A stretch of DNA of 64,000 bases from a virus, in IMG/VR virus record IMGVR_UViG_3300003690_000002, positions 122,399 to 186,398 of that record. One strand, given 5' to 3'. The notes under the pieces are model-generated. The model saw only the letters and a program-made list of their open reading frames with translations, was not told the DNA's origin and did not search any database. Position 1 is the stretch's first letter. Every line of letters starts with the position of its first letter. The position numbers and the translations under genes were made by a program. Positions 5,384 through 10,887 of this stretch are shown here, piece after piece.

Positions 5384-5605
5384 TTAACTACATGCGGTGG
5401 GGTGCGACCAGTTTTCGTATTGCCAGTCGGAAATGAGTTCGTCTTTGCAAAGAGAATCGGTCCAGTTATTCCACGCTTCGCTACGGGCTGGAATGTCTTT
5501 GATACCGTCTTGTTCAAACTCTTTTTGAACTTGCGGAAGAATATTCTCGTTGAATTGTTCGACTGCTTCTTTCCAAGTAATTACGCTATAAAGATTGTTT
5601 GCCAT
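5384..5605 (-). CDS. small phage hypothetical protein
   Basis: MANNLY...WNNWTDSLCKD; AAGGG SD. Confidence 0.7.
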   Translation of the reverse strand: MANNLYSVITWKEAVEQFNENILPQVQKEFEQDGIKDIPARSEAWNNWTDSLCKDELISDWQYENWSHPTACS

Positions 5606-5626
5606 ATATTTTAACCCTTCTTCTTC

Positions 5627-5661
5627 AAAAAAAATGTGCGAGGTTCCCAACTTCCTCGCAC
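5627..5661 (-). terminator. intrinsic terminator
   Basis: 8-bp stem GTGCGAGG/CCTCGCAC followed by A-T8 on the minus strand. Confidence 0.75.
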
Positions 5662-5809
5662 TAAACACGACCTAAACGCTTACGCAACGACCTGACTAGT
5701 CGCAACCGGCATGCCACCCATTCGCTCCAACAGGACGCGCATTACAAGGTGCCCGGTGATTTAGACTAGCCAATCTCGCTCGTGTCTCCCACGAAAAGAA
5801 AATCCGCAT

Positions 5810-5882
5810 GGTCGGCATGAGCCTTTCGAACAACGACCTTGCGAATTTTTAAGAAAACCCGCGAGGTCGGCATGAGCCTTTC
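5810..5882. repeat. 18-bp direct repeat x2
   Basis: ggtcggcatgagcctttc at 5810-5827 and 5865-5882. Confidence 0.9.
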
Positions 5883-6066
5883 ATCCGTAATGGGAGTTGC
5901 ACCCATGCAGCAGGATACCACTCCCGCCGATTCTGCTCTGACTAAATAACGAGGTATCAGCCCGGTTTAGTCCTACGGCATATATTCTGAACATGCCAGT
6001 TTGGTACTCGCGGATTTTCAAAGAGCGAATCAAGAAATCGTTGATTTCTTTCTCCACTGTATATAT

Positions 6067-6095
6067 ATTATCTCATAAATTTAAGAATTTGTCAA
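6067..6095 (-). promoter_or_regulatory. sigma70-type early promoter
   Basis: TTGACA-17-GATAAT with extended -10. Confidence 0.8.
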
Positions 6096-6222
6096 TACTT
6101 TTTATTCTTTTTTTAATTCTTAAAAACAAGGAGTAAAAGAGCGAAGAAATACAGCAAACCCGATATTGCGCTAGCATACAAAATATCTTTTGTGAACCTG
6201 TTCATTTCTTTTGGGCTCTCTT

Positions 6223-6463: not shown

Positions 6464-6550
6464 TGGTGCCATCGGAGGGACTCGAACCCTCACATCCATA
6501 CGGATAACGGATTTTAAGTCCGTTGTGTCTGCCAATTCCACCACGATAGC
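6464..6550 (-). tRNA. tRNA-Leu(TAA)
   Basis: GCTATCG...D-loop TGG, anticodon loop CT-TAA-AA, long variable arm, GGTTCGAGTCC, encoded CCA. Confidence 0.93.
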
Positions 6551-6559
6551 AAAAAACCT

Positions 6560-6793
6560 CTACCATTCGTCTTCATTCTTTATTACAGAAAATGTATCAA
6601 AGACATCAACGTTTTTCACAGAATCTTTTTCGTGTTGAGTGATTGCCTCGGTAAGTTTTGTGGTAAGTTCGTTGATTACATAAATTCGATTTGGCACAAG
6701 CCTCAAATCGAGGTGCGCACCATTGTCACTGCGCCAACTAAGCACTTCCTCAATGATTTGTCTAATTTTCTTTTGATTAACCATCAATAGCAA
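6560..6793 (-). CDS. hypothetical protein
   Basis: 77-aa ORF overlapping the upstream stop. Confidence 0.55.
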   Translation of the reverse strand: MLLMVNQKKIRQIIEEVLSWRSDNGAHLDLRLVPNRIYVINELTTKLTEAITQHEKDSVKNVDVFDTFSVIKNEDEW

Positions 6794-8015
6794 TAATCCT
6801 TTCGCTAGTTTGGAAATAAGGGCGATGAGCGTAATATTTTGTTGTCATCCACATTCGTTGACATTTAGAAGCTTTAGGCTTTGGAGCCATCAAGTCTGTC
6901 AAAATAATGTGACCATCAAAACCATGCTTGTTCACATATTCGGTAGGAGCATCGAAGCATGTTCCACCATGCATGACACGTTCAGTTTTGTGATTCTGCC
7001 CCTTTTTCCACTCGTAAATAAGCGATTCCTCAACTCGGGTATCGAAAGGAACAACAGTAAACGAAGCGAGTTTAGAAAGCTTGCTCAACTCGCTAAAAAA
7101 CGATGCGAGCATATCATCCCCTACAGAACCACTTTGGTCAATGCTGATTGCAATACGGGCAACACGCTTAACCTTCTTACCAGGATGAATGTAACGATAT
7201 CGTTTATTGATTCGCTTTACTGTGCTAGATTTGTTCGAGCGCGTAGAAGTTTTTACAAAGTATCGAAGTACTTTGCGCCAATCAATATGGGTTTGAATTC
7301 GTTCAAGAATCTCTCTTCGACACGAAGCAGGCACGGTACCCCAATTAGATGCGTTTTGAGCCTCTTGTGCTGCCTTTTTTACAAAGTCCTTAATACGTTC
7401 CTTAGCAATCTCGCCCGTTGTAGAATCGACTTTGCCCCAACCTTCGTGAGAGTCGAACTGTTCACTGGAATCGTTATTGCTACTGCTGCTAGATCCGTTT
7501 TCACCGTCACCACTGTCACCAGATTTATTTTCTTCTCCATCGTTACGTTTTTGTCCTTTGTTCTTCTTTTCGAACTGTTCATCTTTTTTCAAACGCTTAA
7601 GATAAGCTTCTGCGCTTAGACCGACTGGGTATTCCTCAAATCGATCAACACCTGGCACAAGACAACCATCAGGCAATTCGCCAATCAAATGCGAATTAAT
7701 AGCAAGGTCTGTTGCAAAGTTCCAAATTGTATGATTGACTGCATCTGGTTTTCGAGAAGTGACATGTTCAAAAATCAAATGATAAAACTCATGTTTGAGT
7801 ACCCCAAGACGTTGAACATCAGAAAGTTTTTCAAAAAACTCTGGATTGTACAACATTTCAAAATGTGCTGTCTCGGGATTAACTCGTACTCCCGCAGTTG
7901 GAATTGTAGTAGTAGCACGCTTGTTAATACGACGAGACAATGAAGCAAAAAACGGCTCTTGCATAAGCAATCGCGCCGTGTGTATGTTCAAATCGAAATT
8001 ACTAGTTTTACTCAT
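6777..8015 (-). CDS. DUF2201-type metallopeptidase + VWA-like domain protein
   Basis: HEFYH (HExxH), Ser/Gly/Asp linker, IDQSGS MIDAS-like motif, GGT...TD; adjacent to an AAA ATPase. Confidence 0.85.
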   Translation of the reverse strand: MSKTSNFDLNIHTARLLMQEPFFASLSRRINKRATTTIPTAGVRVNPETAHFEMLYNPEFFEKLSDVQRLGVLKHEFYHLIFEHVTSRKPDAVNHTIWNFATDLAINSHLIGELPDGCLVPGVDRFEEYPVGLSAEAYLKRLKKDEQFEKKNKGQKRNDGEENKSGDSGDGENGSSSSSNNDSSEQFDSHEGWGKVDSTTGEIAKERIKDFVKKAAQEAQNASNWGTVPASCRREILERIQTHIDWRKVLRYFVKTSTRSNKSSTVKRINKRYRYIHPGKKVKRVARIAISIDQSGSVGDDMLASFFSELSKLSKLASFTVVPFDTRVEESLIYEWKKGQNHKTERVMHGGTCFDAPTEYVNKHGFDGHIILTDLMAPKPKASKCQRMWMTTKYYAHRPYFQTSERIIAIDG

Positions 8016-8021
8016 GTCTTA

Positions 8022-8050
8022 ATTATCTCAAATTTAGGCGAGTTTGTCAA
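8022..8050 (-). promoter_or_regulatory. sigma70-type early promoter
   Basis: TTGACA-17-GATAAT with extended -10. Confidence 0.8.
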
Positions 8051-8070
8051 GTATATTTTAAACTATAATT

Positions 8071-8100
8071 AAAAAAGAGAGGGGATCTCTCCCCTCTCTT
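8071..8100 (-). terminator. intrinsic terminator
   Basis: Stem AAGAGAGGGGA/TCCCCTCTCTT running into a T tract, just after the AAA gene stop. Confidence 0.8.
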
Positions 8101-8109
8101 GCGAAGCTG

Positions 8110-9198
8110 TTATTCCTCGTCTTCAGAGGAATTTCCGGTTAGAATTTGAACTAGGTAGTCAGATACTCGAATTCCATCCGTTGCTTTTGCTTGGTGGAGT
8201 GAAGTGGTATTCTCAAGATCCCCAGCACCCAAAACCGTCCACAGTTTCATAGCAACTTCAGAAGGAAGTGTTACAAAATAATTTGATAGATTTTGAATTT
8301 GCTCATCAGACAATTTTTCTTTAAAAATTTCTTTGGCTTCCATTTTTTCAACTAACGCACTATGCGCATTGATATCAAAATCAGATGTTTTTTCAAGCTT
8401 TCCTTCGTCAATGACTTCTTCAACAGTAACTTGATGCTCATAATTAGCGACAAAATCGTTAAATGCCACTGCTGCTTCAAAACCGACATAAGCAGTTGAA
8501 AGATTGAAAAGCGTGGACGAAGCTTCAGCTAGCAAATCAGCCCTTGCAAGACAGTCATTGAGCCGTTTCCAAGAACGTCGCGAAGGATATACTTTGTTTG
8601 GCTCATAATCGCCATCGTGCTCCAAATGATTACGATTTTGATTAATGAAATCCCAAATCAAAGAATCAACATTTTCTTTACCCCAAGACAACCAATCTTC
8701 AATTGATGGCTCAACATCAAATACAACATAGCGGTCAAGTTCCGCAGGGTCCATTTCGTTAACTTGATATTGATCACCATGCTCGCCGCCATTAATGGCA
8801 GCAAAAAGGATCGTATCAGGATGAAGATAGTGACCATTCAATTTGCGAGAATCAGTAAGTTCAAAGATACCTTGTCGAACTTCTGTTGTTGCTCGGTCGA
8901 CTTCGTCTAGAAAAAGAACAACCGGTTCCGTACATGCTGTTACAAACCAATCCGGGGGATTAAATGCAGTAGCTTGCGTACCATTAATATCAACGCCTTC
9001 AGGGCGAGGTAGACCAACTAGATCACCTTCTGTCATTTGACTGGCACGGCGTTCGACAACAGGGATTTGTGCCTCGTTGGCGAATTGATATACAACCTCA
9101 GATTTACCAACCCCGTGACGACCGCGAATCATTACTGGTTTACGATCATCAACAACAAAGGAGACACACTCAAGAAACGTTTTGAAATCAATTGCCAT
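8110..9198 (-). CDS. MoxR-like AAA+ ATPase
   Basis: Walker A GRHGVGKS, Walker B LFLDE, AAIN, DPAELDR. Confidence 0.88.
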   Translation of the reverse strand: MAIDFKTFLECVSFVVDDRKPVMIRGRHGVGKSEVVYQFANEAQIPVVERRASQMTEGDLVGLPRPEGVDINGTQATAFNPPDWFVTACTEPVVLFLDEVDRATTEVRQGIFELTDSRKLNGHYLHPDTILFAAINGGEHGDQYQVNEMDPAELDRYVVFDVEPSIEDWLSWGKENVDSLIWDFINQNRNHLEHDGDYEPNKVYPSRRSWKRLNDCLARADLLAEASSTLFNLSTAYVGFEAAVAFNDFVANYEHQVTVEEVIDEGKLEKTSDFDINAHSALVEKMEAKEIFKEKLSDEQIQNLSNYFVTLPSEVAMKLWTVLGAGDLENTTSLHQAKATDGIRVSDYLVQILTGNSSEDEE

Positions 9199-10858: not shown

Positions 10859-10887
10859 ATTATCTCACAGATAAAAGAAAATGTCAA
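10859..10887 (-). promoter_or_regulatory. sigma70-type early promoter
   Basis: TTGACA-17-GATAAT with extended -10. Confidence 0.8.

Follow-up and report, generated by a model that had tools for sequence, protein, structure and literature searches.

The locus described here lies on the minus strand, within a run of small early genes, of an uncultured marine phage of the T4 type. The source virus is a complete IMG/VR genome of 186,398 bp with direct terminal repeats, and the stretch that we analysed (henceforth the window, 64,000 nucleotides, whose positions are used throughout) is its right-hand 64 kb. The genome encodes a major capsid protein of the Gp23 family (E 1e-60) and was therefore assigned to the T4-type phages. 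No close cultured phage was found, as the best match among cultured relatives of the 412-residue protein encoded next to the locus has below 30% identity. Relatives of this VWA protein at 25-30% identity occur in Vibrio, Pseudomonas, Alteromonas and jumbo Klebsiella phages. It is paired with a MoxR-like AAA ATPase, and the two genes lie upstream of the locus (Table 1).

Seven near-identical early promoters (TTGACA, 17 nt, TG-n-GATAAT) are found on the minus strand between 1747 and 10887 of the window, with -35 elements starting at 10887, 10008, 9262, 8050, 6095, 5344, and 1747. Behind six of them an SD and an ATG come within ~35 nt, whereas the promoter at 6095 alone leads into 434 nt without a credible ORF. 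The bases GTGGAGA open several of the early transcripts, and the same bases open the two RNA modules described below. A tRNA-Leu gene is located ~370 nt upstream of the locus in the unit of the 8050 promoter. Since no terminator was seen in the sequence between this tRNA gene and the RNA locus, or ahead of the 6095 promoter, the tRNA and the RNAs of the gap can share one precursor. Clusters of tRNA genes occupy the same early region in four relatives (L014, L020, L022, and L030).

A sequence-only reading of this DNA had proposed that the gap holds a single structured transcript of about 430 nt with its own promoter and terminator, which might serve as a sponge, a decoy or an anti-defence RNA. 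Every feature on which it drew (promoter, terminator, stems, a hairpin resembling a tRNA T arm, a direct repeat and a 58-codon ORF) was found again at the same place on the minus strand, and the gap is indeed non-coding, structured and preceded by an early promoter of the sigma-70 type. Its minimum free energy has a z-score of -3.62 over the 434 nt and of -4.63 for the first ~214 nt alone, and its G+C content is 0.52 as against 0.33-0.40 in the flanks. The hairpin that closes the gap is a real intrinsic terminator, being a G+C-rich stem followed by a U-tract (z -4.1); it was missed by the automatic terminator scan, which takes loops of up to 8 nt, because its loop has 10 nt. That the transcript stands alone is doubtful, since the 73-codon ORF on its far side lacks a promoter of its own and must be transcribed by read-through of the terminator. 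The frame of this ORF stays open upstream, across the terminator, to a GTG at 5668 (a 94-residue ORF on the minus strand, 5384-5668); we take this extension to be an accident, because the equivalent frame in a related phage (L012) has a TAA just 5' of the ATG.

Table 1. Features of the RNA locus and its surroundings, in window positions unless another record is named.
Feature	Position	Strand	Basis or remark
MoxR-like AAA ATPase (362 aa) and DUF2201 metallopeptidase/VWA protein (412 aa), paired	6777-9198	minus	Pfam; upstream of RNA locus
tRNA-Leu(UAA)	6464..6550	minus	ARAGORN, Rfam; between small ORFs
Small hydrophobic ORF, 30-36 aa, starts MN..TKD	6113-6205; L009:7270-7380		precedes module A promoter in both phages
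Early sigma-70-type promoter of RNA locus	6067..6095	minus	TTGACA, 17 nt, TG-n-GATAAT; 11 of 12 consensus positions; extended -10
Module A, structured RNA of ~213 nt	5846..6058	minus	5' hairpin P1, closing helices P2/P3, four-way junction P4-P7
P1, 5' hairpin	6025..6057	minus	sequence diverges, hairpin kept; includes promoter-cassette leftover GGAG
P2 5' strand GAAAAUCCGCGAG	6007..6019	minus	inverted repeats; consensus fold
Four-way junction core	5885..5978	minus	consensus fold, two variants
P4, 5 bp	5978-5974 with 5889-5885	minus	
P5, long arm, 7-nt loop CUGAUAC	5972-5940	minus	
Invariant 10-nt joiner	5939-5930	minus	
P6, 8 bp, loop GUGGUA	5929-5908	minus	
P7, T-arm-like hairpin	5890..5906	minus	5-bp stem closed by G-C, loop UGCAACU
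P2 3' strand CUCGCGGGUUUUC and U-rich tail	5845..5865	minus	inverted repeats; consensus fold
Module A', internally deleted tandem copy of A	5790..5850	minus	repeat copy and P2-like strand
Module B, small structured RNA ended by intrinsic terminator	5627..5792	minus	model R2: 89 bits, E 1e-18
Intrinsic terminator, 8-bp stem, conserved 10-nt loop AAGNUGGGAA, U8	5627..5661	minus	-14 kcal/mol
73-codon ORF with SD	5384..5605	minus	no promoter of own; no Pfam match

We gathered 18 related loci through the neighbouring 412-residue protein and compared them with the gap using blastn and nhmmer. This comparison showed that the gap is composite: its 5' ~215 nt (module A) and its 3' ~165 nt (module B) recur in different phages. 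L009 has module A by itself, and L012 and L030 have module B by itself, each copy behind a promoter of its own, so the proposal of one ~430-nt unit does not hold. What lies in the gap is two unrelated folded RNA elements in a row, with a broken copy of the first (module A') between them.

The homologue of module A (L009:7424-7640) scores 266 bits with our model of the module (R1) and sits behind the same type of promoter, downstream of a small membrane-protein ORF, as in the window. Module A is thus syntenic in both lineages that have it. Its consensus fold begins with the 5' hairpin P1, followed by the closing helix P2 (13 bp, 6019-6007 with 5865-5853), helix P3, an internal loop of 8 by 8 nt, and the four-way junction. 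Two of the stems picked out in the sequence-only reading (6050-6043/6039-6032 and 5972-5966/5946-5940) are part of this conserved fold. A further stem (5997-5993/5981-5977) can be drawn in the window but is broken by a U to C change at 5980 in the homologue, where GGCAUG instead pairs with CAUGCC farther 3'. Many G-U pairs of the module are compatible with the minus strand only.

Within the junction, the hairpin P7 abuts the 3' strand of P4 with zero spacer. Its closing G-C pair, the U that opens the loop and the A at loop position 5 are what we take to be hallmarks of a T-loop; counting against this likeness, the loop has a G at the position of tRNA pseudouridine 55. The loop of P6 resembles a D-loop, a matter of resemblance only. 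Six nucleotides at the apical loop of P5 (GAUACC, 5953-5958) are complementary to the P6 loop and 3' stem (GGUAUC, 5914-5919) and could make a kissing contact or an alternative fold; both stretches are invariant in the two homologues, hence without covariation. The U-rich tail that follows the 3' strand of P2 is a possible built-in terminator of the module. In L009, UUUUCUAUU comes after the 3' strand of P2, and a small gene begins next, with its SD and TTG start ~20 nt after the module. At the other end of the L009 copy (7426-7443), the leftover SD GGAG is followed directly, with zero spacing, by ATG GAG GTT TAG, a mini-ORF of three codons that is probably meaningless.

A major question for a fold drawn from two sequences is whether selection maintains it. 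All 60 consensus pairs of module A hold in both sequences; four pairs are doubly compensated and eight carry one-sided, wobble-compatible changes, while slid controls gave 0-1. In P1 (helices 1-2) the window and L009 differ by one double change and three one-sided changes. The core (6019-5853) accounts for 14 differences, 14/14 of them transitions: six make up three compensated pairs, of which P7 holds two and P6 one, another five are one-sided and wobble-compatible, three are unpaired, and no pair is broken. P7 has thus had two of its five pairs exchanged (AUGGG/CCCAU in the window, GUGAG/CUCAC in L009) around an invariant loop. The structure was inferred from the same two sequences, and for this reason we re-inferred the consensus structure for each of 400 neutral sets of 14 transitions. 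At least three double compensations in the core arose in 3/400 of these simulations (about 0.75%), and the three unpaired substitutions observed compare with 8.1 expected. By this comparison, the fold of module A is kept by selection. The core is also 92% identical between the two phages, as against 68% for the adjacent 1.3-kb DUF2201/VWA gene; part of this high identity could come from recent exchange between the phages rather than from constraint.

The selection on module A might in principle act on a protein, as the 58-codon ORF that opens with GTG (5881-6057), or a shorter one of 37-46 codons from an internal TTG or ATG, runs through it. The frame is open over 46 codons in both homologues, and 8/14 of the differences fall on third codon positions. 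This excess is not significant (p about 0.06 for one frame, when three frames are possible), one of these eight changes falls past the stop codon, and two amino-acid changes in the hairpin fall on the pairing partners of two of the apparently synonymous changes. Moreover, the GTG lies inside the leftover SD and the internal starts have no SD, while in L009 codon 6 of the GTG frame is a stop and the frame is shifted upstream of codon 13 by a 2-nt indel. The homologue therefore keeps the base pairing, with compensated pairs, and not the ORF. No sequence in a collection of 5.8 billion proteins shares three 5-residue words with the ORF, so that no homologue was found there, and a Pfam search returned no family. 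We think that the ORF is not a real gene, and regard a small protein as a very improbable product of module A.

The direct repeat, which had been noted as 18 bp long and taken for repeated protein-binding modules, is longer (32 nt, 91% identical, 5796-5827 and 5851-5882, spacing 55) and has another origin. Module A' consists of a 13-nt strand resembling the 5' strand of P2 (10/13 identical to 6019-6007), 10 unrelated bases, and the second copy of the 32-nt repeat (5796-5827), in which the 3' strands of P3 and P2 are found together with the U-tract. Module A' is thus a tandem copy of module A without its core, and this duplication explains the repeat. Its fold is a terminator-like hairpin of -19.6 kcal/mol with U's behind it, in which one G-C pair of P2 of module A is replaced by A-U. 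It is absent from L009, the only distinct homologue of module A. We infer that transcription may end at P2 of module A and at A'.

Module B has homologues at L012:3489-3600 and L030:5864-5975, each directly behind its own promoter. The consensus comprises a 7-bp outer helix, an inner bulged helix, a small hairpin and the terminator. The module is ~110 nt long in the relatives and ~165 nt in the window, which has a 64-nt hairpin insertion (5701-5764) exactly at the apical loop, where L012 and L030 have 5 nt. Double compensation was found in 8/31 pairs, while slid controls gave 0-2; fitting the alignment to the model tilts this count towards structure. In L030 the stem of the terminator is rebuilt (GCAGGAAG/CUUUCUGC versus GUGCGAGG/CCUCGCAC), and its loop AAGNUGGGAA is unchanged. 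A fresh promoter follows directly after the terminator in L030, where module B is accordingly a stand-alone gene. In the window and in L012, a conserved SD and ATG come after the terminator instead, joined to small ORFs that are unrelated to each other.

The gap was searched with the covariance models of Rfam 15 at E up to 10, and nothing came near a gathering threshold (riboswitches, ribozymes, sRNAs, GOLLD and ROOL included); the best match was Tymo_tRNA-like, whose 15.6 bits (E 5.1) compare with a threshold of 40. At normal thresholds, ARAGORN and the Rfam tRNA family (RF00005) reported tRNA-Leu only and neither a tRNA nor a tmRNA in the gap, and the Rfam and ARAGORN results agree with the earlier impression that this is not a tRNA, a tmRNA or RNase P RNA. 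With the ARAGORN thresholds lowered to 70-80%, only implausible calls appeared. P6 and P7 were read there as a class II variable arm and a T arm, and one of the calls takes promoter bases as its acceptor stem and is therefore not credible.

Both modules are rare. None of 50,697 cultured phage records matched the gap in a sensitive blastn search. We further scanned IMG/VR, JGI metagenome contigs and one genome per prokaryotic species with exact and gapped patterns, and beyond L009, L012, and L030 the true matches were four copies identical to L009. These four (L037, L043, L046, and L053) came from the metagenome contigs, where the other 17 loci matching module A patterns failed the model. In bacterial genomes 7/7 matches to module A patterns failed the model, so there is no sign of a host origin. 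Candidates set aside as chance were the other matches to the junction and loop pattern of module A in viral contigs (L028 and L029) and the matches to the 5' end of module B and to P4-P5 of module A (L064-L069); matches to the 18-mer repeat (L006-L008) lay in G+C-rich coding DNA only. Everything searched thus yielded two variants of module A and three of module B, and the covariation accordingly rests on very few independent changes. Both modules are absent from three complete related genomes (184-201 kb) and from several partial ones. They are dispensable, as the three complete relatives live without them, and this absence together with their rarity in the scans makes modules A and B accessory elements of a narrow clade. 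In the same early region, other relatives (L011, L014, L017-L019, and L022) have gaps of 200-500 nt with neither ORFs nor tRNA genes (for example L022:11609-12114 and L014:7378-7674), and these may hold further, unrelated RNA modules.

We compared the modules with described RNAs of phages and bacteria. In T4, species 1 (rnaC, 139 nt) and species 2 (rnaD) are stable structured RNAs encoded next to the tRNA cluster. The present locus shares with them the T4-type phage, the strand of the tRNA, the early or tRNA region and possibly co-transcription with a tRNA. Like module A, rnaC is multi-branched and has a T arm stacked on the closing helix. It differs in its canonical T-loop UUCGAAU and acceptor-like 3' end, where module A has the loop UGCAACU, a junction placed under two further helices, and no acceptor end. 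Homology to these RNAs was rejected, as an unfiltered search of the T4 tRNA region with model R1 gave at most 9.4 bits, which is noise. By analogy of architecture, rnaC is the nearest conceptual precedent for module A.

The YrlA group of bacterial Y RNAs, which has members in phages, is built on a long terminal stem topped by a multi-branched domain whose hairpins include one like a T-loop and one like a D-loop, its arms following each other in the order T, acceptor-like, D (PMC4201824). Module A is similar in having a long stem formed by its 5' and 3' parts, a multi-branched cap and T-like and D-like loops, but its D-like arm lies directly 5' of the T-like arm. We rejected membership of this group: no Rfam Y-RNA family matched at E up to 10, the conserved Ro-binding motif of the YrlA closing stem, GNCGAAN0-1G, was not seen by eye in P2/P3, and the complete 186-kb phage genome has no TROVE (Ro60) match at E up to 1, at which controls were detected. 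A retron msr-msd RNA was discarded too, since the genome has no match to a reverse transcriptase (RVT_1); the neighbours of the locus are small ORFs. Also set aside were a ToxI-like or sponge-like repeat array (the repeat has two copies only, one of them a decayed duplicate), a replication-origin transcript (in place of an AT-rich unwinding element, the region is folded and rich in G+C) and a CsrA-type GGA sponge (~9 GGA in 434 nt by eye, near random expectation).

Module B resembles terminator-ended bacterial sRNAs in its promoter, its structured body of 70-130 nt, its G+C-rich hairpin and its U8 tail, and module A resembles riboswitch and attenuator leaders in its multi-helix junction and in having a closing helix beside a U-tract. 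They differ from known sRNAs and leaders in matching no Rfam family, in preceding unrelated genes and in having no nameable target or ligand. As for the surroundings, T4-type phages carry PeSL cassettes made up of a stem-loop, an early promoter, an SD, and an ATG (PMC2839356, PMC4122927). The early region studied here likewise has repeated near-consensus sigma-70 early promoters with SD and ATG in a variable part of a T4-type genome. A stem-loop precedes the promoter in L030, where it is the terminator of module B, and none was seen before promoters 6095 and 5344 in the window. The terminator of module B, the SD and the ATG are also kept as one unit before unrelated ORFs, as in PeSL cassettes. 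Unlike these short regulatory or recombination motifs, however, the cassette here holds 110-210 nt of conserved, covarying RNA between promoter and SD. Since PeSL recombination cassettes fit both the promoters and the unit of module B, they would explain how RNA modules come to stand before unrelated genes.

Taken together, the locus is real, structured, non-coding and outside described RNA families, and comprises two RNA genes and a remnant. The explanation to which we incline, at somewhat better than even chances, is a cluster of small non-coding RNA genes in the hyperplastic early region of a T4-type phage, in which an early-promoter cassette carries trans-acting RNAs in the place usually taken by an ORF. 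Host RNA polymerase would start at ~6060 and make module A, then A', then module B, and some polymerases would go on into the 73-codon ORF. Module A would end at the U-tract of P2, at A', or at the terminator of module B; because a U-tract directly follows its closing helix, it probably ends itself as a stable RNA of ~210 nt. Module B would be made by read-through and processing in the window and from its own promoter in L012 and L030. Both RNAs would then act in trans early in infection.

The serious rival is that modules A, A', and B act in cis as a 5'-UTR leader that attenuates or times promoter-less downstream ORFs, either by delayed-early read-through or as a riboswitch-like aptamer; we consider this distinctly less probable than a cluster of trans-acting RNA genes, though well worth keeping in view. 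An early promoter always stands immediately before the modules, the ORF that follows them in 3/4 contexts (the window, L009, and L012) has an SD and a start codon but lacks a promoter, and U-tracts stand after P2 of module A, the A' hairpin and the terminator of module B. The conservation of module B, SD and ATG as one cassette before unrelated ORFs is also what such a leader would lead one to expect, and the 6-nt complementarity of the P5 and P6 loops is of a kind seen in compact aptamer folds. However, the genes downstream are mutually unrelated in every case, and nothing in L030 depends on module B, since a fresh promoter comes after it. The 13-bp P2 appears too stable to switch, as it forms with or without a ligand, and no riboswitch or leader family of Rfam matched even at E up to 10.

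A different possibility is that the modules are non-functional debris, either recombination scars or a decayed tRNA pseudogene, whose similarity reflects recent exchange between phages. Their patchy and narrow distribution would fit, as would the plainly decayed duplicate A' and a recombination-prone cassette array of the kind known in T4-type phages (PMC2839356, PMC4122927), and ARAGORN, far below its default thresholds, can read P6 and P7 as class II variable and T arms. That call depends on promoter bases for its acceptor stem, though. Compensated pairs in module A exceed the neutral expectation, with 0/14 core substitutions breaking a pair, and the helices of module B have been rebuilt with different sequences around a conserved loop. 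We therefore judge the debris explanation improbable.

If module A is a trans-acting RNA, its architecture raises the question of a partner. The closing helix P2/P3 would underlie a four-way junction in which the arm of T-loop type is stacked on the junction helix next to its D-loop-like neighbour. By analogy with T4 species 1 and YrlA, the junction of T-loop and GG-loop might bind a protein that recognises the tRNA elbow, with module A serving as a scaffold or decoy; we offer this tentatively and give it a minor share of the probability. The tRNA-elbow reading is one of resemblance only, and the D-like arm, with its 8 bp, is misplaced for a tRNA and no tRNA model scores. Bolder still, and in our view rather unlikely, is the proposal that module A is the first of a new class of phage tRNA-elbow mimics, a stable early RNA that holds out its T-loop and GG-loop junction on a long helix and catches a host tRNA-recognising protein, with module B an independent early regulatory sRNA and both travelling as cargo of promoter cassettes. 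Examples of a protein that might be captured in that case are a defence nuclease directed at tRNA, a modification enzyme and a Ro-like protein.

The modules occur independently of each other, their folds are kept by compensatory change, and the conservation of module A greatly exceeds that of the protein gene next to it. The stable RNAs of T4, species 1 and 2, were recognised about fifty years ago and still await a functional explanation. The locus described here indicates that an unrelated marine lineage of T4-type phages also keeps folded, selected RNAs beside a tRNA gene of its early region, and that the promoter cassettes by which small ORFs are shuffled can also move RNAs of this kind as cargo. 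Should module A prove to be a protein-binding mimic of tRNA, an RNA-based tool would be added to the means by which these phages take over their hosts or evade them.
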